Notes under the pieces: generated by a model
Databases searched by the model: none
The model's input: the letters and a program-made list of their open reading frames with translations, nothing else
What the model was told of the DNA's origin: nothing
Part shown: positions 3,071-56,412 of the stretch, in pieces
Position numbering within the stretch: position 1 is the first letter of the stretch
How the letters are laid out: each line of letters begins with the position of its first letter
Translations under genes and position numbers: made by a program
Source: Nitrospinales bacterium
GTDB lineage: Bacteria > Nitrospinota > Nitrospinia > Nitrospinales > VA-1
Direction of reading: 5' to 3'
Assembly: GCA_965262115.1 (NCBI GenBank)
Contig: OZ253496.1
Coordinates: 1,540,447-1,604,446 of the forward strand
DNA: 64,000 bases

Positions 3071-3189
3071 CGTCATCGCGAGCGACTGTGTGAAATTCTT
3101 CATTTGCCTTCATGCCCCGAAGGGGTAAAAGGAGCGCGGCGATCCGGGTTTCTGGATTGCTTCGTCGCGGTTAGCTCCTCGCAATGACG
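3071..3189. mobile_element. MITE-like element, family B (terminal inverted repeats CGTCATYGCGAG)
   Basis: It starts CGTCATCGCGAGCGAC and ends GCTCCTCGCAATGACG, which are inverted. The first ~75 nt are nearly identical to 6905-6980. It has no coding capacity. Confidence 0.7.
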
Positions 3190-6904: not shown

Positions 6905-7062
6905 CGTCATCGCGAGCGACTGTGTGAAATTCTTCATTTGCCTTCATGCCCCGAAGGGGTAAAAGGAGCGTGGCGATCCAGACTTCTGGATTTACCCTTT
7001 CAGGGCACGAAAGCTTGGGAAGAATATCTCGGCTTCGTCGCTGTTGGCTCCTCGCAATGACG
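6905..7062. mobile_element. MITE-like element, family B, longer copy
   Basis: Same termini as 3071-3189 (CGTCATCGCGAGCGAC ... GCTCCTCGCAATGACG) and a near-identical first ~75 nt. It has an extra ~39-nt internal segment. Confidence 0.7.
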
Positions 7063-8754: not shown

Positions 8755-9480
8755 TTGGGAAATTTTCCATTGCCTTTATCGTCTTATAAAGCGGTTTTTT
8801 TTGATGTCGGGGGGACTCTGATCCACGTTCACCCGTCGGTCGGGGATGTCTATGCCCGACACGCCCGCCCCTTCGGCTATTCGGGTTCTGTCGAGGTTTT
8901 AAACGAAGAGTTTCGCGCGCAATGGAAGAAAATGGGGGGTATCGAGTCTTTGGGCAATCAGAGCGGAGCCGAAGCGGAAAGAAATTTTTGGCGCAAATTG
9001 GTTTATGAGGTGTTTCAACCGCTGGGAGGGCTCGACCGGTTTGAAGAATACTTTGATCTCATTTTTGAGGCGTTTCGAGAGAAATCCAACTGGCGCGTTT
9101 ATGAAGATGTGATCGAATCAAAAATTCTCGAAACTCTGAAAAAAAGAGGCGTGGTGTTGGGGGTCATTTCTAACTGGGACTCGCGGTTGACCTCCACCCT
9201 GGAAAATATTGGTCTCGCGCGGTATTTTGATTTTATCTTACCCTCTGCTGTGGTCGGTTCGGCAAAGCCCGATAAAAAAATATTTGAGGAAGCGTTAAGA
9301 CGAAGTGGTGTCCAGCCTCATGAAGCCTGCCATATCGGCGATGAAATGCGAACCGATGTAGATGGGGCCCAGGCGGCTGGTATACATCCTATCCTGCTGG
9401 ACCGGGACAACCGTTTTGACTTGGCGGGAGTGACGAAAGTTGCTTCCCTTAGAGAACTGAATCCGTCGGCTGAATTGTGA
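8755..9480 (+). CDS. HAD-superfamily hydrolase (subfamily IA)
   Basis: 241-aa ORF with motif I FFDVGGTLI and a later GDEMRTD motif. TTG start. Confidence 0.75.
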   Translation: MGNFPLPLSSYKAVFFDVGGTLIHVHPSVGDVYARHARPFGYSGSVEVLNEEFRAQWKKMGGIESLGNQSGAEAERNFWRKLVYEVFQPLGGLDRFEEYFDLIFEAFREKSNWRVYEDVIESKILETLKKRGVVLGVISNWDSRLTSTLENIGLARYFDFILPSAVVGSAKPDKKIFEEALRRSGVQPHEACHIGDEMRTDVDGAQAAGIHPILLDRDNRFDLAGVTKVASLRELNPSAEL

Positions 9481-9505
9481 AGCGGGGAAAGTGGATAGGC
9501 GGCTT

Positions 9506-9670
9506 TTAAGCCTTATAGCCTTTTATGCCATCCAGTTTAGCATTTTTAAAGCTGGCGTCTTTAGTATCGGCTTTGGTCAAGTCTGCTTTGGAGAGATCCG
9601 CCCCATGGAAAGAGACGGCGTTGAGGTCGGCCTCCCTCAAATTGCTACTGACCAGAGATGCGAAGGTCAT
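9506..9670 (-). CDS. Pentapeptide-repeat ORF; stand-alone 54 aa, or a C-terminal domain of the upstream membrane protein
   Basis: Eight tandem A(D/N)LxX-type pentapeptides (NLREA DLNAV SFHGA DLSKA DLTKA DTKDA SFKNA KLDGI). There is no clear SD before the ATG at 9670. The frame is linked to the upstream ORF through an A10 run. Confidence 0.5.
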   Translation of the reverse strand: MTFASLVSSNLREADLNAVSFHGADLSKADLTKADTKDASFKNAKLDGIKGYKA

Positions 9671-11168
9671 GCCGACCGTTTTTTTTTTGCTTTTCCCGGA
9701 ATTCCAGAGCCAATAAAAAATAAAAAGGGAGATACTCCACCCAGGGGATCCATGGGCTAAATGCTTGAAGTTCTTGATAATCAAAATAAAAGTCGAGGTA
9801 ATAAAGGCCCACCAGTCCGGTCAATACCATCCACGACCGCGCGGGGAAGATACACAAAAATGGCACCACCCAGCAGAGATACCACGGGTTCTGCACCGGA
9901 CTGAGGAGAAATACCAAAGCCATGATCCAGAAAAGCCCGCGAACAAATTCTTCGGGTTGTTGAAGGAGAGAAGCCCCCTTAACCAGTAACCAGAATAAAA
10001 CCCCGATTAATGTAAGGGCCACTGTAACCTTGCTCAGAAAAATTGGCAGGGGATTGGAAAAAATCGTTTCACTCGCGAACCCACCCGACACATTGTTAAA
10101 GATGAAAACCAGAATAGCAAAAATGCTGTCGTTGCTCTGCCAGTACAGGCTGAAGGCTTTGAGTCCATCAAACATCTGCAATCCGATCCCCATAAAGGGT
10201 AGATACCCCAAAATGGCCACTCCGAGAAACAGACTGGTATTGCCGAAAGGAGTCAGCCAGGCTTTCCCCCCCGACTGGCGCATTTTTTCATAACCGGCCT
10301 TGAGGTATAGGGGAAGCAAAATCACGGGGTACAGTTTTCCCAGAAGGCCAAAGGCCAGAAACAGGGTCGCCAAGGTATGGCGGTGACAAAGCAAAAAATA
10401 AATGGAGCCAGTGAGCAGGGATATACCGATGATATCCAAATGGGTCGAGTTAAAAGTTTCCTTGATGATCAGAGGGCTCCAGAAATAAATCAGGCAAGCG
10501 GATTTATCTATCCCCAACCTCGAAAGAATGCCAACGATAAAAACTAAAGTCATGATGTCGAAAATTAAAAATCCGGAACGCAGGGCGACAATGCTGTCGG
10601 GTTTTATCTGATGCGCCAGGCGGAACACAAACTGCGCCATCGGTGGGTAGATGGTGGGCACATCTGGATGGTTCACCCGTTCCAAGTATTTAAGGGATTG
10701 GGGAGACGCCCATTTCAACGCATCCAGTTGTTCCAGTTCGCGCTCGTTGCGTTCAACATAAGTTTCATAATAGCTTTCTGGATTCTGAATCCTTAGCGCC
10801 TTGAAGTCGTGCGCTTCGGCGGGGGCGTATTCAAATGGATTGATTCCATTCGCGAATACTTTTCCATCCCATAAATAGCGGTAGACGTCATCTTCCTGAA
10901 TCTGCTGAGAGGGGAGGATGGCGGCACGAAACAACAGGCCGAACACGATGATCATCCAAAAACTGCCTGCGTCTCCGGGACGCTTGCGCACGATATACCA
11001 AGTGAGGCCATAAAGTGTACACAGGGAAAAATAAACAACAAGATAAGTGAGGAGGGGTCTTTCTGAATATCCCTCTCCCCAGTTGAATTGGTGGGAAAGC
11101 TGGGTCAGGAAACCATAAAGCAGGAGGCTGGCTGTCCCCGTTAACAGGATAGGGAGTCGGGAACGCAT
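9645..11168 (-). CDS. Polytopic membrane protein, GT-C-type glycosyltransferase-like (DUF2029/GT87-like)
   Basis: 507-aa ORF with many hydrophobic segments. It has an early loop motif DDVYRYLWDGKVFANGINPFEY, typical of this family. Confidence 0.55.
   Translation of the reverse strand: MRSRLPILLTGTASLLLYGFLTQLSHQFNWGEGYSERPLLTYLVVYFSLCTLYGLTWYIVRKRPGDAGSFWMIIVFGLLFRAAILPSQQIQEDDVYRYLWDGKVFANGINPFEYAPAEAHDFKALRIQNPESYYETYVERNERELEQLDALKWASPQSLKYLERVNHPDVPTIYPPMAQFVFRLAHQIKPDSIVALRSGFLIFDIMTLVFIVGILSRLGIDKSACLIYFWSPLIIKETFNSTHLDIIGISLLTGSIYFLLCHRHTLATLFLAFGLLGKLYPVILLPLYLKAGYEKMRQSGGKAWLTPFGNTSLFLGVAILGYLPFMGIGLQMFDGLKAFSLYWQSNDSIFAILVFIFNNVSGGFASETIFSNPLPIFLSKVTVALTLIGVLFWLLVKGASLLQQPEEFVRGLFWIMALVFLLSPVQNPWYLCWVVPFLCIFPARSWMVLTGLVGLYYLDFYFDYQELQAFSPWIPWVEYLPFYFLLALEFREKQKKNGRHDLRISGQ
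9679..9688. repeat. Homopolymer T10 (A10 on the coding strand)
   Basis: Counted directly. It lies where the 507-aa ORF frame and the pentapeptide frame overlap. Confidence 0.95.
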
Positions 11169-16924: not shown

Positions 16925-17095
16925 ATCAGCCAGCGGAGAGCCTCCGCAGGCGTAATGTTTTTCCTTGGCCTTCGTGCCCCGGAGGGGTACAAATTGCAAT
17001 ATCTTTCCCTGGCTAGAAATGATTTTCCCGGTTGGGCAAGCCATTGCCCAGTTGCCTCCACGGCTAGTGGGCGGAGAGCCTCCGCTGCAGGTTTA
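16925..17095. repeat. Cluster of short hairpin repeat modules
   Basis: It contains GCGGAGAGCCTCCGC twice, CTTCGTGCCCCGGAGGGGTA, AATTGCAATATCTTT and GTTGCCTCCACGGCTAGTGG (17051-17070). All of these recur elsewhere in the window. Confidence 0.8.
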
Positions 17096-29851: not shown

Positions 29852-30030
29852 CCCACTAGCCGTGGGGGCAGATAGCCATAACTTTTTCCGGCAAAAAAAG
29901 TTGTCGCGGCTTAATGGGTTGGGGTGATTGACCTCCAGTGGGGTTGCCGTGCCCGAGTGAGAGGATGTTTTATTCTTCTTTAGCTTTCATGATCCTGTGA
30001 TTTCCCCTGACGTTAACTTCATGCCCTGCA
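29852..30030. repeat. Cluster of short hairpin repeat modules
   Basis: CCCACTAGCCGTGGGGGCAGATAGCC (29852-29877), GGGTTGGGGTGATTGACC (29916-29933, also at 48974-48991) and CTTCATGCCCTGCAGGGTA. Confidence 0.8.
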
Positions 30031-30037
30031 GGGTACA

Positions 30038-35151: not shown

Positions 35152-35278
35152 AGACCTTTGCATAACCCCGAGATTCTTCGTCACGTTGTTCCTCAGAATG
35201 ACAAAACAGCCCTTTATTGTCATGCTGAGCTTGTCGAAGCATCTCGCTTTTCTGCTTTATCGACTTACGCAAAGGTCT
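35152..35278. mobile_element. MITE-like element, family A (terminal inverted repeats AGACCTTTGCRTAAG)
   Basis: The left end is AGACCTTTGCATAA and the right end TTACGCAAAGGTCT. It is flanked by the direct repeat CTAAAAGACC (35142-35151 and 35280-35289). The second copy includes the stop codon of the gene at 35280-35660. Confidence 0.75.
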
Positions 35279-37539: not shown

Positions 37540-38040
37540 GGGCATCTCAAAAAATTGCTTTTGTACCCCTGTGGGGCATGAAAGCTGATGGGGAATATAA
37601 CAGCCACGAGCGGCCATTATGACAAGGAGACCTTTGCATAAGTCGAAAATCGAGATGCTTCGACATACCCCTCCGGGGCAAGAAGGCAAAGGTCGAGTAT
37701 CACTAGCTCAGCATGACAATACTGGGCCATTTTGTCATGCTGAGGAACAAGGCGACGAAGACGTGACATTTTTCCTTACCCTTCGTGCCCGGCACGGGTA
37801 ATCTCGCTTTGCATAGGCTTGGGGATTTGGGGTTGCCGTCTTTGCGAGGAGGCTTTAGCCGACGCGGCAATCCAGGTTTTGGTTTTTCTCTCGGGGTCAT
37901 GCTGAGCCTGTTGAAGAATCTCGCCTTGCATAGGCCTGGGGATTCTTCACTGCGTTCAGAATGACAAGAAACGCCGGTTTGTCATCCTCAAGGAGCCAAC
38001 GGCGACGAATGATCCGGGGTTACGCAAAGCTCTCTATGAT
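37540..38040. repeat. About 500 bp built only of nested MITE-like and hairpin repeat units
   Basis: Family A terminus GAGACCTTTGCATAAGTCG at 37627, GTCATGCTGAG / CTCAGCATGAC inverted pairs, TACCCC-N3-GGGGCA hairpins, and family B-like termini (GCGAGGAGGC..., ...GGAGCCAACGGCGACGAA). Confidence 0.8.
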
Positions 38041-40315: not shown

Positions 40316-41782
40316 GTCAAGTCTTTTGGGCCTGTTGCCCAAACCTTTTGATAGAAGCGTGGGTTTATAAGGATTATAATTTATCTGGCTAGTTTTTGTT
40401 CTTCTACAGTTTTAATCTTTTTTTCCGGGAGTCATTCCCATGATGAAACGCGAAACCCCGTCCCAGAGCGTATTCTTTAACTAGGCCGTGAATCTTGAAG
40501 ATCGGAGTCCTCCAGATCACGAGTTGCGGCAAGTTTCTTCCGTTTTGAACCTGGATTTTGTGTATGAACAAGTAAAGGATAAGTACGGCCACAATGGCAA
40601 CGAATCGGTTCCGCCTCCGGTGATGCTAAAACTGATGTTGCTGCTCATCTTTTACAACGTTCGTTCCGAACGTGAGTTGATGCGTACGCTTCCGTAGCGG
40701 ATGGATTGGCTCTGGTTTCTGGGTTATGGTCTGGACACTGTGATTCCTAATCCCAGCGTATTATCGAAACCAAGGGTTACGAGAAACTTTGTGAGAGACT
40801 GGGCGAACCGGAGGAATCCAATAATCGGCGGGTACGCAGAGAAGTTAATGTTCGTTACCGTTCTACGACCGCTCCGGATGCGGCGATTGTGCCGCGCGGG
40901 GGTTCGCGTTTGCGTTATAAAGTACATCGTTCGGTGGATCCGGCGGCGGAAGTGATCACCACGACTGAGGTGACACGTGGCGATGTAGACGATTCGCATC
41001 GGTTCAGTGCCATGCTGGAAGCGCACCAGGAAAATACCGGGATGTCAGCGAAGACCGCAGTGGCCGACAGTAAATACGGTACGGTGGAAAACTTTCTTGC
41101 CTGCAAAGATATGGGCATTCAACCCCATATGCCCGACCTGAAAAAGAGTCAGGAAACAGACGGCAAACGTCATGGAATATTTTCCAACAGCGCATTTACA
41201 TTCGACCCTGAAAGCGATACCTATATCTGCCCGGTGGGCAAACGCTTGCGGCTGAAGACCTGCCGGTTAAAAGAGCAGCGTATGTATTACGCCGCCAGAG
41301 CAGACGACGGTAATGCCTGCGAACTAAAATCCCAATGCACACGTAGTGCAACCGGACGCACGATCCAACGGGTTGATCGTCAGGACGACCTCGAAGAAAT
41401 GCGCGCAATGGCAAAGACCCCAAAAGGAAAACAAGACCTGAAAACGAGACAGCATCTTATGGAACGGTCATTCGCATATTCGGTGCCCTTGGGATTCAAA
41501 AGGGCACGGTGGCGAAGATTATGGCTGATCCAGATTCAAGAATACCTGACCGCATCCATTCAAAACATCAAACGAATGATCCAACACCTGAAAAAACCGA
41601 TTCACAGTCATGCACTGAAGGTCGTACAACGATTCAAAAACTGCTTGCAGGCTTCAACTTGGGGAGGAATGAATCTGGGTTTTGGGATTTCAATTTAGAA
41701 AAGAAAATTCGTAAGAAATACACAAAATTAATATCAGCAACCCTTCACGGCAACCCTTTGGGCAACAGGCCCTTTTCTTGAC
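40316..41782 (+). mobile_element. Decayed IS1182/IS5-family insertion sequence; the transposase is a pseudogene
   Basis: Terminal IRs GTCAAGTCTTTTGGGCCTGTTGCCCAAA (40316-40343) and TTTGGGCAACAGGCCCTTTTCTTGAC (41757-41782). The transposase reading frame has in-frame TAG codons at 40482 and 40698 and a frame change with apparent internal deletion after ...SVLSKPR. The DDE C-terminal part is in ORF 40889-41698. Confidence 0.8.
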
Positions 41783-41810
41783 TACAAGAGGGTAAAAGAA
41801 GCGTGGCAAT

Positions 41811-42258
41811 CCAACCCTCCCCCAGCCCCTCCCTATGAAGGGAGGGGAGGCAGATGTTTTAAAATCTTTTCAAAAACTCCATCCAGGTTTTCATAAACAT
41901 CCTGATTGGTAAATCGCAGAAACCGTATCCCCATATCTTCGATGGTTTTCTGCCGGATTTCATCCGATTGGATCGCCGTTCCACTGAAATGAGAGTCTCC
42001 ATCGATTTCAATCGCGAGTTTTGCCGATGGGCAATAAAAATCCAGAATGTATCGGTCGACACTGTATTGTCGCCCAAACTTATATCCACCGGCCTGTCTG
42101 TTTCGCAAAAACTGCCACAAAGCCACTTCCGCTAGCGGCATTTCTTTGCGCAAGGATTCTCTTTTGGTTTTTTCTGTGTTTCTGTTGAAAATTTTTACCA
42201 TAGCTTTCTACATTCCAAGCCCCCCTCCCTTCATAGGGAGGGGCTGGGGGAGGGTTGG
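41811..42258. mobile_element. 448-bp cassette: DUF559 gene bracketed by perfect 37-bp inverted repeats
   Basis: CCAACCCTCCCCCAGCCCCTCCCTATGAAGGGAGGGG (41811-41847) and its exact reverse complement (42222-42258). Confidence 0.75.
41833..42201 (-). CDS. DUF559 (Vsr-like endonuclease fold) protein, copy 1
   Basis: 122-aa ORF (LWQFLRNRQ...YILDFYCPSAKLAIEIDGDSH...RFLRFTNQDV). The stop codon and last codons (LPPLPS) lie inside the left IR. Confidence 0.8.
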   Translation of the reverse strand: MVKIFNRNTEKTKRESLRKEMPLAEVALWQFLRNRQAGGYKFGRQYSVDRYILDFYCPSAKLAIEIDGDSHFSGTAIQSDEIRQKTIEDMGIRFLRFTNQDVYENLDGVFEKILKHLPPLPS

Positions 42259-42363: not shown

Positions 42364-42650
42364 TTATAGTCCCTCCCTATGAAGGGAGGGATAGATATCG
42401 GCAGAGAGGGTTTGAGTCATTTTTTGATGCTCGGCAAACTCCAGGCCGTTGTCATAAGTGATGGTGTGAACCCGGTTCCGGTGAGGGGCAAGCCCCTGTT
42501 CGATGCGTTGGCGGACCTGTGGGACCTGTTTGGTTTTCGATGCGGTCAGAACCGTATATTGAGTTTTGCGCTCCACAAGAGTGGCAACAACGCCGACCTT
42601 TACCGATGAGGGTATCGCCTTCCCAGTCTCCGACACGAAATGGCATTTTG
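42364..42650 (-). pseudogene. IS30-family transposase fragment
   Basis: Two overlapping frames carry ...GDWEGDTLIGKG... and ...TLVERKTQYTVL...TITYDNGLEFAEH..., which are integrase-core motifs of IS30 transposases. It is truncated at both ends. The 3' end abuts a CCCTCCC-N6-GGGAGGG hairpin. Confidence 0.7.
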
Positions 42651-42743: not shown

Positions 42744-43838
42744 TCATCGTCCCAGGCAAATGCCGATTGACTCAGCAGTACGGACCAGTTGCGAGTCATC
42801 GGGTACCTGACGGACGATTCCAGCCAGGGATGCCAGCGGAACTAAGACAATATCCTGAGATTTCAAAGCCACCATAGTGCCAAATTTCCCTTCTGCGGCG
42901 GCTTCGACCGCCTGGGTTCCCAACCGGGTACCAAGCACCCGGTCAAAAGCCAAAGGAGTGCCACCTCTTTGCGTATGACCTAAAACCGTGCAACGCACTT
43001 CCAAATCGATTCGATCGCTCAATTGCTTGGCGATATAATTGCCCACTCCTCCCAACTGAGCGACTCCCTGCAATCGGGTAGATGCCGCCTCACTGGTGAT
43101 GGCTTCCTTGCCAATCTCTTTGGCACCTTCGGCCACCACGATCACGCTGAAAGGACTGCCCCCTTCTTCCCGCAAGCGGATTTTTTCCCGGACTTTTTCA
43201 AGGTTGTAAGGGATTTCCGGAATAAGAATGACATGAGCTCCGCCGGAAATTCCGGCTTCCAGAGCGGTCCATCCGGCACTCCGGCCCATTACTTCCAGGA
43301 TCATGATGCGATGGTGACTTTCGCCAGTGGTTTTCAGTCTGTCCAAGGCATCGCAAGCAACCTGCACGGCGGTCTGGTAACCAAACGTGTAGTCCGTTCC
43401 CACCAGATCGTTATCAATCGTCTTGGGAATGCCGATCACCGGCAACCCTTTTTCAAAAAATTTGTGCCCCAACTGCAGGGTTCCATCCCCGCCCACCACA
43501 AACAGGCAGTCCAGTTCAAGGCGCTTGAAATTTTCAATCGTTTTTTGGGAATAGTCCTGAGTGGTCAGGTTGCCGTCTTTATCGAATTGGCGGTACTCAA
43601 AAGGATCTCCTTTATTGGTGGTCCCGAGAATGGTTCCCCCTAACGTCAGGATGTCCTTGGTTCCGGCTACGGTGAGCTTGCAGTTGCGGTCAAAGATCAA
43701 GCCTTCGAAACCCTGCTCGATGCCAATGACTTCAGCTTTATAGGTGATGATCGCGGATCGGGTGACCGCCCGGATGACCGCATTGAGTCCCGAGCAATCT
43801 CCCCCGCCGGTCAGAATGCCAACACGTTTAAGGCCCAT
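42744..43838 (-). CDS. pfkA: 6-phosphofructokinase
   Basis: 364-aa ORF (ILTGGGDCSGLNAVIRAV, VVGGDGT, GIPKTIDND). Confidence 0.9.
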   Translation of the reverse strand: MGLKRVGILTGGGDCSGLNAVIRAVTRSAIITYKAEVIGIEQGFEGLIFDRNCKLTVAGTKDILTLGGTILGTTNKGDPFEYRQFDKDGNLTTQDYSQKTIENFKRLELDCLFVVGGDGTLQLGHKFFEKGLPVIGIPKTIDNDLVGTDYTFGYQTAVQVACDALDRLKTTGESHHRIMILEVMGRSAGWTALEAGISGGAHVILIPEIPYNLEKVREKIRLREEGGSPFSVIVVAEGAKEIGKEAITSEAASTRLQGVAQLGGVGNYIAKQLSDRIDLEVRCTVLGHTQRGGTPLAFDRVLGTRLGTQAVEAAAEGKFGTMVALKSQDIVLVPLASLAGIVRQVPDDSQLVRTAESIGICLGR

Positions 43839-45158
43839 GGGAAACAGTTACAGGTTCCGCAATCAGGTCATAATCCGCCGCGTGCTTTATGGTTACCGGA
43901 ATTATTTCTCCGGGTTCGGCTTCACATTTTTCGAGGATGACCTGTCCGTCAATATCCGGTGCCTGGGAGGCGAGCCTTCCCGTCATCAAATAATTTTCCT
44001 GCGGGTCAAAACCTTCCACCAAAACCGGTTCCACCCTGCCCACGCGCTCCCGGTTTTTTCTGAGAGCAATATCTTTTTGAAATTCCATCAGGATATCGCG
44101 GCGCTCTTCTTTGACCTCCTGCGGTACCCGGTCGGGATAATCGAAGGCAGTGGTGCCTTCCTCATCCGAATAAGTAAAAATCCCAACATGGTCGAATTCC
44201 ATTTCACAAAGAAACCGGACCGTATGTTTAAAATGCGTCTCGGTCTCCCCCGGAAATCCGATGATAAACGTGGTTCTCAGCGCCACATCGGGAATTTTTA
44301 ATCGAACTTCTTCGAGCATTTTCCGCACCCCGCCTGCCGTTTCATGCTTTTAAGCATCTCGTCATGCGTATGTTGCAGAGGCACATCAATGTAGCGGCAG
44401 ACTTTGGGCTCTGAGGCGATGAACTCAATCACCTCCGAGTTCAAAAAGGTCGGGTAACAATATAAAAGCCTGATCCACTCCAACCCATCGACCTTGGCCA
44501 TTTCTGCCAGCAAGCGAACCAGTCCGTCTTTCATTCCCAAGTCAAAACCGTACATGGTGGTGTCTTGCGAAATCAGGTTAAATTCTTTGACTCCCTTGCT
44601 GGCCAGGTTCTCGGCCTCGGCCAGAATGGATTCCGGCGAGCGACTGCGCATCGGCCCACGCATTTTCGGAATGATGCAAAACGCGCAACGGTTGGAGCAA
44701 CCTTCGGAGATTTTTAAATAAGCAGTATAAAAAGCTGTGCTCAACAACCGGTCGGTGTACGACTCATAATATTCGGCGGGTGTGGCGACATGGTTTTTGG
44801 ATAACGGGTCTGTATCCCCAATGATGTTTTTCAATTGAGGGTACTGGCCCACCCCCAGCAGGTGGTCGATTTCTGGAATTTCATCAAGCAGTTCCTGACT
44901 ATACCGTTCGGCCAGACAACCGGTGACGACCAACTGTTTGCATTCCCCCTCGGTCTTGTGCCGGGCCATTTCCAGAATCGTGTCGATCGATTCCTTTTTG
45001 GCAGACTCTATAAAGCCGCAAGTGTTGACAATGATTACCTCTGCATCTTCTTCATTCTGGGTGAGGCTGAATCCAGAAGAAACCAGATCGCCCAGAACCC
45101 TTTCGGTGTCCACCGTGTTTTTCGGACACCCCAAACTCACCATGCCAATTTTTTTCAT
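43828..45158 (-). pseudogene. rimO: Ribosomal protein S12 methylthiotransferase RimO, split by a 1-nt frameshift
   Basis: ORF 44298-45158 carries the UPF0004 domain and the radical-SAM motif CSNRCAFC. ORF 43828-44328 carries the rest plus the TRAM domain. Adding one G near 44330-44338 gives ...MLKSMKRQGGVRKMLEEVRLKIPD... continuously. Confidence 0.8.
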
Positions 45159-45192
45159 TCTCTGTCTTAACTCCCTGAATCCCCTTGTCAGG

Positions 45193-45442
45193 CAGACCTT
45201 TGCGTAAGTCTATAAAGCAGAAAAGCGAGATGCTTCGAGATACCCCTACGGGGCATGAAGTTTAATGAAGAGGATATCACATACCCCTCCTACCCCTCCG
45301 GGGCATGAAGTTAATGGAAGGGGATATAACAGGCTCAAGAAGGCAAAGGTCGAGTATCACTAGCTCAGCATGACAATAAAAGGCTATTTTGTCATTCTGA
45401 GGAGCTATTGCAACGAAGAATCTTGGGTTATGCAAAGGTCTC
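45193..45442. mobile_element. MITE-like element, family A, with about 125 bp of hairpin modules nested inside
   Basis: Ends are CAGACCTTTGCGTAAGTC and TTATGCAAAGGTCTC. The internal arms match the reverse complement of 35152-35278. The middle carries two TACCCC-N3-GGGGCATGAAG...GGATATCAC units. Confidence 0.7.
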
Positions 45443-45491
45443 CTTCTTAGGGGGAAGTTCTTTTAAGTATTACCCTTCCGGGGCACGAAGG

Positions 45492-46181
45492 CTAATGAAG
45501 AGTATCACGTGCGCTTGAGCGTTTGGTCCGCTTTATAGGCAATGCAGTGCTGGCAGCATGTGATACCCCTTCACTTGTTTCATGCCCCGTAGGGGTACGC
45601 CGAGCGGTTAACTTTTTATCCATTTTGCGAATGAGTTCATCAAAACTCTTTTTTTTAATCACCTTGTAAAACTGACTGCGCAAATTGTTCCGCATGCTGA
45701 TCCCGTCCAGAATGACATCCACCACCTGCCATTTACCTCCGGCCAGAGTCAGATGAAAATCGATGTCGACTTCCCCTTCCTTTTCATGAATCACCGTCAG
45801 GGGAACCACAACAACTTTCTTTTTTTCTTTGGTTTTTCCATATTCCAGATCCAGTTCGGCAAAAAATTTCGCAGAACTGGGAAATGCCACATGGACGAAC
45901 AGGTCCCCGAGCAGGGTTTTAAACTTTTCTCGCTCGGGATCACTGCGCTTAGCCCAATGTTTTCCTAAAGCTTTTTTGCTGATTTCTGCGACATTCAGCA
46001 AACCAAGAGCAGATTGGGAATGCTTCTGGTTGTCTGCCTCTTCTAAACCCGAAACATCCGCTTTAATCTGTTGAATTTCTCCCAACAACTTTTTCACCGA
46101 ATCCTGGGGGTCTTTGGTTTCTGCCCAGAGCGGACTGGTGGTCAAAACAATAAAAAGAACAGCACTTAAGGTTTTTTTCAT
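45492..46181 (-). CDS. MlaC/Ttg2D-like periplasmic lipid-binding protein with a repeat-encoded C-terminal tail
   Basis: 229-aa ORF with a signal peptide and an MlaC-like core (ALGKHWAKRSDPEREKFKTLLGDLFVHV...). The last ~38 codons (45492-45608) are translated hairpin-repeat sequence. Confidence 0.6.
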   Translation of the reverse strand: MKKTLSAVLFIVLTTSPLWAETKDPQDSVKKLLGEIQQIKADVSGLEEADNQKHSQSALGLLNVAEISKKALGKHWAKRSDPEREKFKTLLGDLFVHVAFPSSAKFFAELDLEYGKTKEKKKVVVVPLTVIHEKEGEVDIDFHLTLAGGKWQVVDVILDGISMRNNLRSQFYKVIKKKSFDELIRKMDKKLTARRTPTGHETSEGVSHAASTALPIKRTKRSSARDTLH

Positions 46182-48774: not shown

Positions 48775-49490
48775 GGGGCCGACTGCAATAGCTTTCCCTG
48801 GCAAGCAATAGGTTAGCCCGGCCTGATGAGCCGCCGAGGGCAAAAACTTCTCCCCTGACAGGTGGACGTGATATTTTTCCTAAATTTTCGTACCCCGAAG
48901 GGATATTGAGGGGGGTTGATTTTTTAACTCCCTCTTTCTCAAACTCGAACAATAGGAAGACGTTTTGTTCGACGGGTTGGGGTGATTGACCACAAGAAGG
49001 GGGTTTGTCGTCATTGCGAACGAAGTGAAGCAATCCAGTTGCTAGTACCCCAAAACCGTATGAAACACAGCACCAATTCCGACACACCAGTAAATGTCGG
49101 CACCAATAAGGTTCCAAACTGCGGCTGATTTCTCTAAAGGTCATTGCATCACCGCCTTAACCACAAAGAAAAAGAACGCGAGCATGGTGAGGACGGTGTT
49201 CGCCACCGCCGACCAGATCATGATTGTGTGCGCAATATTCCCATCACTAACTTCATGCCCCGTAGGGGGGGTATAATAGTTTTTCCATATCACTTGCCAT
49301 TCTGAGTTTGTAGGTCTGTCATGCTGAGCTAGTGATATTTGATCTTTGAATTCTTGCCCCGGAGGGGTATGTCGAAGCATCTCGATTCTTCGATTTTTCG
49401 ACTTATGCAAAGGGCTCCCTGTCAAGGGAGGGGTGAATGATCTCTTTACAACCTTGGTAACACTGAACTATTTCACAAGGCTCAAGGCCA
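48775..49490. repeat. About 700 bp tract of hairpin and MITE-like repeats, possibly with a gene remnant
   Basis: GGGTTGGGGTGATTGACC (48974-48991), GTCGTCATTGCGAACGAAG...CAATCC, CTTCATGCCCCGTAGGGGGGGTA, GTCATGCTGAGC, and the family A terminus ACTTATGCAAAGGGCTC (about 49401-49417). Confidence 0.75.
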
Positions 49491-49491
49491 G

Positions 49492-49939
49492 CCAACCCTC
49501 CCCCAGCCCCTCCCTATGAAGGGAGGGGAGGCAGATGTTTTAAAATCCTTTCGTAAACTCCATTCAGGTTTTCATAAACATCCTGGTTGGTAAAACGCAG
49601 AAACCGTATTCCCATATTTTCGATAACCTTCTGTCGGACCTGGTCCGATTGTGCAGCCTCTTCGCTAAAATGAGAATCCCCATCGATTTCAATCGCGAGT
49701 TTTGCCGATGGGCAATAAAAATCCAGAATGTATCGATCAACACTGTGTTGCCGCCGAAACTTGTGTCCATTTGCCTGCCTGTTTCGCAAAAACTGCCACA
49801 AAGCCACTTCCGCTGGGGGCATTTCTTTGCGCAAGGACTTTCTCCTGGTTTTTTCTGTATTTTTATTAAAAATTTTTACCATTGTTTTTTTGTTTTTCAT
49901 ATCCCCTCCCTTCATATGGAGGGGTTTGGGGAGGGCTGG
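49492..49939. mobile_element. Second DUF559 cassette with degenerate right inverted repeat
   Basis: The left IR (49492-49528) is identical to copy 1. The right IR (49903-49939) differs at 4 of 37 positions. The length is the same, 448 bp. Confidence 0.7.
49514..49882 (-). CDS. DUF559 (Vsr-like endonuclease fold) protein, copy 2
   Basis: 122 aa from the ATG at 49882. It differs from copy 1 at 18 of 122 residues by manual alignment. The tracked 253-aa ORF is an upstream read-through extension. Confidence 0.75.
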   Translation of the reverse strand: MVKIFNKNTEKTRRKSLRKEMPPAEVALWQFLRNRQANGHKFRRQHSVDRYILDFYCPSAKLAIEIDGDSHFSEEAAQSDQVRQKVIENMGIRFLRFTNQDVYENLNGVYERILKHLPPLPS

Positions 49940-54619: not shown

Positions 54620-54835
54620 ATCGTTTTAGCGGAGAGCCTCCGCTGGCAACCGGCAAGGGCATGAAGGCTAATGATGGGGATATCACAAGCCAAGATAATT
54701 TTTTCTAGCCAGACGTGATATTTTTCTTAAGTCTTCGTGCCCCTGTGATATCCCCTCCGCTAAATTCATGCCCGGAACGGGTAGAAGGGGTAAATAGTTA
54801 TTACCAGTTGCCTCCACGGCTAGTGGTGGGATTTA
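54620..54835. repeat. Cluster of short hairpin repeat modules
   Basis: GCGGAGAGCCTCCGC, GGCATGAAGGCTAATGATGGGGATATCAC, its inverted partner GTGATATTTTTCTTAAGTCTTCGTGCCCC, and GTTGCCTCCACGGCTAGTGG (54807-54826). Confidence 0.8.
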
Positions 54836-56002: not shown

Positions 56003-56412
56003 ATGAGCCTCTCTTCTGCATGAGACTTTTAACAATCGCGAACGAACCAATCCGGGCTGGTTTTACCGCAGATGAACACGGATGGACACCGATAGAAAAT
56101 TCCTCCCCTGATAAGTGGAGGTCAGGAGGGGTTTGGGTTTTAACTGTCTCTTACCCAAAAGCGGCTATTCGACAGGGATTGATCAGGGCTTTCTCTACAC
56201 GCGGAAACTCATACTTCGGGCCAGCACCGGCACCCGCAATCTTCGCCAGGATGACCCGTATTTGGGAGAATTATTCCAGTAAACAATTTACCCTTCTCTT
56301 GCTTTGTGGCTGTCTCTTGCATTTTTGTCTTTCAGCGTTCGCCATTTGTATTTCTTTTTGAACTCGGCCAGAGTTTTACACCTGTCCTGGGGAGTTGGCC
56401 TCAAGTTCGTAG

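Follow-up and report, generated by a model that had tools for sequence, protein, structure and literature searches.

Two DUF559 nuclease genes between inverted triplex-type repeats in a Nitrospinales genome: candidate partner enzymes for a dispersed bacterial repeat

A stretch of 64,000 nucleotides from the genome of a Nitrospinales bacterium (GenBank assembly GCA_965262115.1, contig OZ253496.1, positions 1,540,447 to 1,604,446 of the forward strand), from now on referred to as the window, contains two copies of a compact unit, each consisting of a small DUF559 gene located between inverted repeats. The question raised by this locus is what kind of element such a unit represents: a transposon, a selfish or ordinary host gene, or a repeat system with its own enzyme. 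The initial annotation, made from the letters of the sequence, had argued for past duplication or transposition and against a housekeeping gene. With moderate confidence, we propose that each unit represents a conserved gene-plus-repeat module, analogous to REP/RAYT systems, in which a YcjD-type DUF559 nuclease gene is situated between inverted copies of a dispersed repeat.

Both units are 448 bp long, copy 1 occupying positions 41811-42258 and copy 2 positions 49492-49939, with a start-to-start spacing of 7,681 bp. In copy 2, the DUF559 (YcjD-like) nuclease gene is encoded on the minus strand (49514-49882, 122 amino acids; PF04480, E-value 6e-32). Its 3'-side arm (49492-49528, minus strand), initially termed the left inverted repeat, is a full triplex-type motif reading CCCCTCCCT-TCAT-AGGGAGGGG-CT-GGGGGAGGGTTGG, and its 5'-side arm (49903-49939, plus strand), the former right inverted repeat, has this motif with 4 mismatches (CCCCTCCCT-TCAT-ATGGAGGGG-TT-TGGGGAGGGCTGG). 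In copy 1, the DUF559 (YcjD-like) nuclease gene (41833-42201, minus strand, 122 amino acids; PF04480, E-value 1e-29) lies between a 3'-side arm (41811-41847, minus strand) identical to that of copy 2 and a 5'-side arm (42222-42258, plus strand) which is its perfect complement. Arm complementarity is 100% over 39 nt in copy 1, where the inverted repeat reaches 2 nt beyond the 3' arm to position 41809, and 89% over 38 nt in copy 2. Similarity between the copies ends at the outer ends of the arms and the flanks show no significant alignment (upstream score 10.5 versus 8.6±1.4 for shuffled sequences, downstream below the shuffled mean). About 75 bp of shared sequence upstream of the 5' arm, hinted at by a multiple alignment, was rejected because 67 of 500 shuffles scored as high. 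The initial description of two discrete, paralogous units of equal length with identical left repeats, 4 mismatches in one right repeat and 18 of 122 differing residues around unchanged core motifs was reproduced in all of these points. The same is true for the missing target-site duplication: no direct repeat was found at the junctions of either unit, and the AT dinucleotide at both ends of copy 1 does not represent one because it belongs to the extension of the inverted repeat (AAAAT/ATTTT in the related locus L004).

Read outward from the gene, the arms have the sequence CCCCTCCCT-TCAT-AGGGAGGGG-CT-GGGGGAGGGT-TGG and consist of three blocks: a C-stem of 9 nt, the complementary G-stem after a 4-nt loop, and a mirror-image second G-tract after a loop of 2-3 nt. 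C-stem and G-stem fold into a DNA hairpin of -10.4 to -11.1 kcal/mol, values that refer to the Watson-Crick hairpin only. The 3' arm of copy 2 has a 9-bp stem (-11.1 kcal/mol) and the 5' arm of copy 2 is weakened to a 7-bp stem, with a G-to-T change shifting the fold from -10.4 to -7.2 kcal/mol. This repeat had initially been called decaying, which holds for the hairpin but not for the gene it flanks, which is intact and under purifying selection.

Gene and repeat overlap at both ends. On the gene strand, the final 5 codons (PPLPS) fall within the 3' arm together with the TAG stop codon, located at the hairpin loop, and the loop of the 5' hairpin carries an ATG. This ATG is in frame in copy 2 and several homologues, so that gene callers yield proteins with MKGG[DE] extensions; in copy 2, use of the alternative start at 49915 results in a 133-amino acid protein (MKGGDMKNKKTMVKIF..., P0002). 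P0002 and P0121, the latter corresponding to the window's 253-amino acid open reading frame (ORF), are exact matches within the protein collection, and copy 1 was recorded by gene callers from M21 onward as the 102-amino acid protein P0124 (identical sequence). Many DUF559 gene models carry spurious 'MKGG...' or '...PPLPS' extensions because the coding sequence runs into the repeat.

A motif detector was written for the three-block build of C-stem, loop, G-stem, loop and mirror G-stem, from now on referred to as triplex motif (TM). At a stem length of 8, exactly four full motifs were identified in the window, all of them arms of the two genes, and at a stem length of 7 an additional weak motif was detected at 56102-56131. 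The window contains the hairpin core CCCTCCC-N-GGGAGGG 4 times, whereas 100 shuffles yielded none. A solo hairpin consisting of the arm core without the G-rich tail (42370-42391, plus strand, TCCCTCCCT-ATGA-AGGGAGGGA; -10.1 kcal/mol, z -4.8) is located 110 bp outside copy 1 and is probably a degraded motif. Further, a degenerate hairpin of the same family with a weak fold of -5.7 kcal/mol (49412-49433, plus strand, GGGCTCCCT-GTCA-AGGGAGGGG) is found 60 bp outside the 3' arm of copy 2. No matching family was identified in Rfam.

The build of the arms is that of a repeat whose literature reportedly includes Bachellier et al. in the 1990s and Hoyne and Maher in 2000, the BoxC/PIT element. The E. 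coli intrastrand triplex motif TMECO, previously called BoxC and later PIT, is defined by the pattern CCCTCNCCC N3-6 GGGNGAGGG N3 GGGNGAGGG and is represented by 23 copies in strain MG1655 and 3,610 in 262 proteobacterial genomes (PMC4666352). It has been known in E. coli since the 1990s, is abundant in both enterobacteria and cyanobacteria, is present as single copies or as inverted pairs (five of which have short spacers in E. coli), forms a triplex in vitro, as shown for the E. coli sequence, and marks variable parts of the genome (PMC4666352). Holder et al. (NAR 2015) reported no mobility gene near TMECO, no function and no associated protein (PMC4666352). Like BoxC/PIT/TMECO, the window-type repeat has three 9-nt stretches (C-stem, G-stem and mirror G-stem) separated by a first loop of 3-6 nt and a second of 2-3 nt, giving a motif of about 34-37 nt; it is likewise dispersed, intergenic, present both solo and in inverted pairs, and composed of triads as expected for a purine-motif triplex. 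The two differ in their stems (CCCCTCCCT, AGGGAGGGG and GGGGGAGGG in the window, CCCTCNCCC in TMECO), the published pattern having no match in the window, and in that each full window copy flanks a DUF559 gene, in contrast to TMECO, for which the literature reports neither a partner protein nor a function. Judged from sequence, the arms have the BoxC/PIT/TMECO triplex-motif build in a different sequence variant, and triplex formation is predicted for them.

The association of gene and repeat extends far beyond the window. From contigs representing one genome per species, 79 loci with relatives of the window proteins were retrieved using peptide patterns of the protein body, none of which lie in the last five, repeat-encoded codons. 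TM density decreases steeply with distance from the gene, from 8.8 per kb within 50 bp to 4.0 (50-100 bp), 1.8 (100-200 bp), 0.50 (200-500 bp) and 0.066 (beyond 500 bp), the value for shuffled loci being 0.006. A TM adjoins the gene in 60 of the 79 loci. Of the 33 loci whose nearest TMs flank the gene on both sides, 28 have them as an inverted and 5 as a direct pair, and in 22 of 40 loci the 3' TM includes the stop codon. Hosts include Nitrospinota, Bacteroidota, Cyanobacteria, Desulfuromonadales, Patescibacteria, Acidobacteria, Chloroflexota and Gammaproteobacteria, with Pontibacter (Bacteroidota) carrying inverted repeats of 44-55 nt. The G-tails are directed inward in 19 loci and outward in another 9, with Nitrospinota and this window among the latter.

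Stem letters vary among phyla and the three blocks change together. A positions of the purine stem tend to be matched by T in the third strand, and 93% of 1,709 parsed triads (190 motifs) are C.G*G, T.A*T or T.A*A; it should be noted that the parser favors these triads, making this figure supportive and not independent evidence. TM similarity tracks nuclease similarity (Mantel rho 0.24, none of 2,000 permutations as high), a correlation that shared host ancestry could also produce. In Marinomonas (L073, L077) and cyanobacterial loci (L029, L039, L044), two motif subtypes alternate in opposite orientation, forming arrays around the DUF559 gene. These resemble the inverted pairs of type A and type B described in E. 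coli by Holder et al. (PMC4666352).

One explanation for such an association would be that DUF559 is simply a host gene with structured cis-elements. The protein would then be an ordinary chromosomal, Vsr-like repair or restriction-type nuclease which is inactive on the repeats, and independent TMs would gather at the gene ends, either to function in the 5' and 3' untranslated regions (sequestration of the ribosome binding site, mRNA stabilization) or at a site that tolerates or attracts them. In many loci, an AAGGAGG-like ribosome binding sequence is indeed located 6-25 nt ahead of the start codon, within the hairpin or the G-rich tail; the gene is chromosomal, old and rare on plasmids and phages, with the copy 1 position being kept; and a DUF559 protein of Caulobacter, linked to a cytosine methyltransferase, behaves like a repair nuclease of the Vsr type. 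What this explanation does not account for is why one repeat family with covarying stems should be enriched more than 100-fold and arranged in inverted pairs around one small gene family in at least 7 phyla, or why homology between paralogues ends exactly at the repeat ends. A regulatory role is further disfavored by earlier work, cited in Holder et al., in which PIT elements showed neither promoter nor terminator activity (PMC4666352), and by promoter and terminator scans of the window, which returned nothing on the gene strand. We therefore consider a host gene with cis-elements to be unlikely.

Within the gene-plus-repeat module that we favor, the enzymatic component is a predicted nuclease. 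Both window proteins match PF04480 at profile positions 4-108 of 109, and their best named match is the NCBI YcjD model (NF007294, E-value 4e-20, positions 6-110 of 117), with a score of 72 bits that lies under the equivalog cutoff of 218. They can be aligned over their full length with YcjD (E. coli b1289), DUF559 and NGO0050, identity to YcjD being about 39%. Copy 1 matches NGO0050 (PDB ID: 3HRL) both in sequence (E-value 2.8e-15) and in fold (TM-score 0.79). The best fold matches of its AlphaFold model (pLDDT 90) are 3HRL and the catalytic domain of I-Bth0305I (PDB ID: 3R3P; Foldseek E-value 6e-4, TM-score 0.73), and the match to the Vsr fold is weak (E-value 0.14). All 14 residues that are fully invariant among 82 homologues are present in both copies, including R18, E25, W29, R44, Q45, E65, D67, H71, D80 and R83 as well as G68 and R96, and both also contain D54, which is conserved in 99% of homologues. 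Based on the catalytic signature D...ExD...H and the modeled Vsr-like fold, both proteins are predicted PD-(D/E)XK (Vsr-like) nucleases with an intact active-site signature.

DUF559 shares with Vsr the Vsr-like branch of the PD-(D/E)XK superfamily (PMC3424549), and many homologues are labeled 'very-short-patch-repair endonuclease' by JGI. Unlike in the Vsr setting, no cytosine methyltransferase was found among the 10 neighboring ORFs scanned. Pfam, NCBIfam, PHROGs and PADLOC scans of the window protein yielded only DUF559-type and restriction-endonuclease-like matches and no DDE, HUH, serine or tyrosine recombinase domain. Membership in a defense system was rejected, as PADLOC returned only weak domain-level matches to nuclease domains of larger proteins.

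The structural similarity to I-Bth0305I brings homing into consideration. This EDxHD homing endonuclease, the product of a phage group I intron, possesses a DNA-binding domain distinct from the catalytic one; the window protein shares its catalytic fold, however, it is free-standing, intergenic and consists of a single domain of 122 amino acids. In a homing-type selfish gene, the nuclease would cut a gene-less TM or an inverted TM pair and repair from a gene-bearing copy would place the gene between the motifs, with short-spacer inverted TM pairs (the classical E. coli BoxC) representing empty or deleted sites. Besides the fold, a weak PHROGs match to 'homing endonuclease', the location of the gene exactly between inverted TMs in 28 loci, the five short-spacer inverted TMECO pairs of E. 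coli and the occurrence of the unit in different contexts among related genomes would be compatible with such a scenario. However, no site with a bare TM pair was found that is orthologous to a site filled with the gene, and the gene is intergenic instead of residing in an intron, intein or conserved host gene. In addition, the paralogues are 14% diverged and not near-identical, and the spread of solo TMs would be left unexplained. Homing strikes us as quite unlikely.

Copies of the repeat also occur without the gene. Scanning metagenomes for the Nitrospinota-type motif yielded 21 loci, 6 of which are DUF559 units. At least 8 of the 21, all with ample flanks, contain the identical 37-39-nt unit alone (CCCCTCCCTTCATAGGGAGGGG-NN-GGGGGAGGGTTGG[A/C]T), with sharp boundaries and in unrelated contexts, and share nothing else with DUF559 units. 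The arms are therefore members of a dispersed-repeat family and not termini specific to one element. The possibility that solo motifs result from LINE-like, 5'-truncated copying of the gene's 3' end was rejected based on the presence of gene fragments from both N- and C-terminal parts. In one metagenome contig (L096, WASW01010963.1), an inverted repeat of at least 375 bp (approximately 146-520 and 9350-9770) bounds a segment of about 9 kb, each of its arms holding a Nitrospinota-type TM; the same composite flank is found in L094, L095 and L097.

The units themselves have been duplicated, though rarely. According to protein-cluster metadata, the source genome encodes at least 4 DUF559 genes of this kind, which are diverged and all end in ...PPLPS. 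The relative OZ252246.1 carries an orthologue of copy 1 (L002, 96% nucleotide identity, 39 bp of the 3' flank shared) and a second copy elsewhere (L001) whose motif tails are lost, the pair being 99.1% identical, as well as a truncated 3' gene fragment with its motif. The 5' flank of copy 1 is truly orthologous in two metagenome contigs (L084 and L085), with proteins of 87% and 81% identity to that of copy 1; in other relatives, the unit is found in different contexts. The presence of multiple paralogous units means that this is not a single-copy housekeeping gene. From these sequence comparisons, it appears that the unit is duplicated on rare occasions and that its positions can stay stable across species.

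Between the two window copies, the genes differ at 49 of 369 nucleotides (86% identity). The ratio of nonsynonymous to synonymous substitution rates (dN/dS), a comparison the initial annotation had suggested, is 0.17 (NG86) with a dS of 0.46-0.52, which on sequence grounds indicates that both genes are functional and under purifying selection and that the duplication is old. Ancient paralogues conserved in position had been named as evidence that would refute the initial reading; this is in part what was found, given the dS values and the retention of the copy 1 position in L002, L084 and L085. Over the divergence of copy 1 and copy 2, one pair of corresponding arms has no difference among its 37 positions and the other has 4. 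Even against L004-L006, with dS at saturation, no stem differs and variation is confined to the loops. The repeats are therefore constrained, or homogenized, more strongly than the coding sequence.

These observations bear on the possibility of an autonomous transposon similar to insertion sequences (IS), as entertained by the initial annotation, in which the 37-nt repeats would be terminal inverted repeats and DUF559 the transposase. The units are discrete, bounded by repeats at which homology ends, present in multiple copies including the near-identical pair of the relative, and the stop codon lies within the terminal repeat, as it does in many IS elements. Duplication can thus be retained from the initial proposal. 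Transposon termini, by contrast, cannot: the putative termini also exist as solo repeats, and their orientation relative to the gene flips between phyla (tails inward or outward). The 122-amino acid PD-(D/E)XK nuclease contains no recognized transposase domain, no target-site duplication was found and the copies are old, with a dS of about 0.5. An IS-like transposon is highly improbable in our assessment. The DUF559 gene was found in only 32 of 72,556 plasmid records, mostly chromids, and 2 of 50,697 phages. Plasmid copies from Picosynechococcus PCC 7002 (pAQ6, L105) and Synechocystis B12 (L106) have the same layout with shorter stems, the DUF559 gene and its motifs adjoining a gene for a DUF1156 protein or the BREX methyltransferase PglX.

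Inverted repeats on both sides of a gene could also constitute an invertible switch, with recombination between them flipping the gene relative to an outside promoter. DUF559 is 14-fold enriched among predicted targets of programmed inversion in a bacteria-wide inverted-repeat screen (PMC9881135, Table 1). This enrichment is expected anyway, however, because repeat and coding sequence overlap, which makes DUF559 score as an inversion target in screens of this type. No recombinase is encoded among the 10 neighboring ORFs scanned, and the unit has the same orientation in all orthologous comparisons (copy 1 versus L002, L084 and L085; L004 versus L005 and L006). We see an extremely remote chance that the unit is a switch. 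The neighbors of the plasmid copies L105 and L106 may explain why both of their product names are co-listed as inversion targets in the same screen (PMC9881135).

The repeat type was characterized in E. coli, and the arrangement around the E. coli homologue of the window genes is of particular relevance. The sole YcjD gene of MG1655 (1351407-1351760) ends in ...NRRSPSP*, with its TGA stop codon located in the loop of a degenerate TM. It is followed by a duplicated gene fragment derived from the 3' end and then by the full TMECO #9 at a distance of 167 nt. ycjD is listed as a flanking gene of TMECO #9 at 167 nt, without comment, in Table S2 of Holder et al. (PMC4666352). The fragment between ycjD and TMECO #9 (L080, NC_000913.3 1351240-1351400) is a diverged duplicate of the ycjD 3' end (METVLENIRQGLNR...). 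Just upstream of ycjD, a hairpin with a 12-bp stem is present. For the solo motifs in the published E. coli table, orientation relative to replication is uninformative (8 co-oriented, 5 not).

Among strains, ycjD is found in phylogroups A, B1 and C as well as ST69 and ST182, with eefRABCD occupying the same site in B2 and other phylogroups (PMC12817139). TMECO counts per strain range from 0 to 30, with 10-11 in O157:H7; CFT073, UTI89, IHE3034 and S88 are among those with 0-2 (PMC4666352). In our set of complete E. coli genomes, 3,378 of 5,426 contain ycjD. We take the strains with 13-30 TMECOs to belong to phylogroups A, B1 or C and those with 0-2 (CFT073, UTI89, IHE3034, S88) to B2, and the TMECO counts of the remaining strains of Holder et al. 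lie between those two sets. The direction of this distribution fits the hypothesis that nuclease and repeat belong together.

Taken as a gene-plus-repeat module, the unit resembles the REPtron (REP/RAYT) in that inverted short palindromic repeats, which are also dispersed in the genome, lie on either side of one small nuclease gene, and in that the gene is chromosomal, mostly vertically inherited and rare on plasmids and phages. It differs in its enzyme, which is of the PD-(D/E)XK Vsr-like type and not a Y1 HUH (IS200/IS605-like) transposase, and in its repeat, which carries an extra mirror G-tract with triplex or G-quadruplex potential instead of being a plain hairpin. By analogy, we hypothesize that the nuclease recognizes and then cuts or nicks a folded, probably single-stranded, form of its own repeat. 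This activity could maintain or disperse solo repeat copies and would at the same time keep the repeat pair at the ends of the gene, which in turn may allow the whole unit to be duplicated or moved occasionally by recombination or repair at the repeats. Action on the repeat, the folded substrate and any mobility mechanism are inferred.

Several points weigh against this interpretation. To our knowledge, there is no biochemical or genetic evidence of any DUF559 protein acting on a TM, and we know of no PD-(D/E)XK nuclease that carries out strand transfer alone. Any mobility must be rare since the window copies are old and the position of copy 1 has been kept. In 19 of the 79 loci, no TM was detectable beside the gene, and E. 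coli ycjD lacks a TM on its 5' side. The E. coli strain distribution is confounded by phylogeny, and O157:H7 contains 10-11 TMECOs even though its lineage (ST11, phylogroup E) carries eefRABCD and not ycjD (PMC12817139). Finally, in the single comparison made of an occupied with an empty TMECO site, the alleles of TMECO #5 (tauD-hemB) differ by replacement of the whole intergenic region and not by a clean 36-bp indel, so that they provide no junction information. The tauD-hemB alleles (L102-L104) comprise a 501-bp version with TMECO #5, a 552-bp version with an extra insert of 51 bp and an unrelated 434-bp version without the motif. At least 80% of the tauD-hemB query is covered in 3,601 of 5,426 genomes, mostly corresponding to the motif allele, a number close to that of genomes with ycjD.

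A broader proposal, which we put forward tentatively and with some doubt, is that YcjD-type DUF559 nucleases are the cognate enzymes of BoxC/PIT/TMECO-type repeats throughout Bacteria. They would form a second, independent class beside REP/RAYT, recognize DNA folded into a hairpin, triplex or G-rich structure, act in the maintenance, dispersal or processing of the repeats and in this way might cause the genome instability reported around them. A published report of a link between DUF559 and BoxC was not found in the searchable literature, which does not cover subscription journals. The repeat type and the protein family were each already known, and their coupling across phyla provides each with a concrete, testable hypothesis: a 30-year-old orphan repeat gains a first candidate partner enzyme, and the small stand-alone YcjD-like members of the very large DUF559/YcjD nuclease family, which have no known function, gain a candidate substrate. 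If correct, bacteria would possess a repeat-plus-nuclease module of a second kind, with an enzyme that may read non-B DNA. E. coli K-12, with one ycjD and 23 motifs, offers a direct test ground.

The surroundings of the two units in the window are non-homologous, as the initial annotation had described. A truncated DDE transposase ORF (40889-41698, plus strand, 269 amino acids; PF13751/PF01609), the IS remnant noted there, lies directly downstream of copy 1. Homology of OZ252246.1 to the window ends about 40 bp past the copy 1 unit, which indicates that the transposase side has been rearranged. Copy 2 adjoins a block of 56% GC content at 50-54 kb, the rest of the window being at about 48%. The hairpin repeats reported beside both copies were likewise found. 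An unrelated second family of dispersed repeats, a mosaic of 40-85-bp modules including the hairpin ATACCCCTnCGGGGCATGAAG and similar to BIME clusters, occurs at 45170-45620 and at approximately 3089-3127, 6923-7031, 16961-16989, 29980-30033, 35152-35278, 37620-37802, 49235-49428 and 54657-54792. One of its clusters adjoins copy 2, and the same family is found just upstream of DUF559 in both OZ252246.1 loci (L001 and L002). Between the two units, a MiaB/RimO-like radical-SAM ORF (44298-45158, minus strand) of only 286 amino acids overlaps a 166-amino acid ORF (43828-44328, minus strand) and may represent a frameshifted or split pseudogene.

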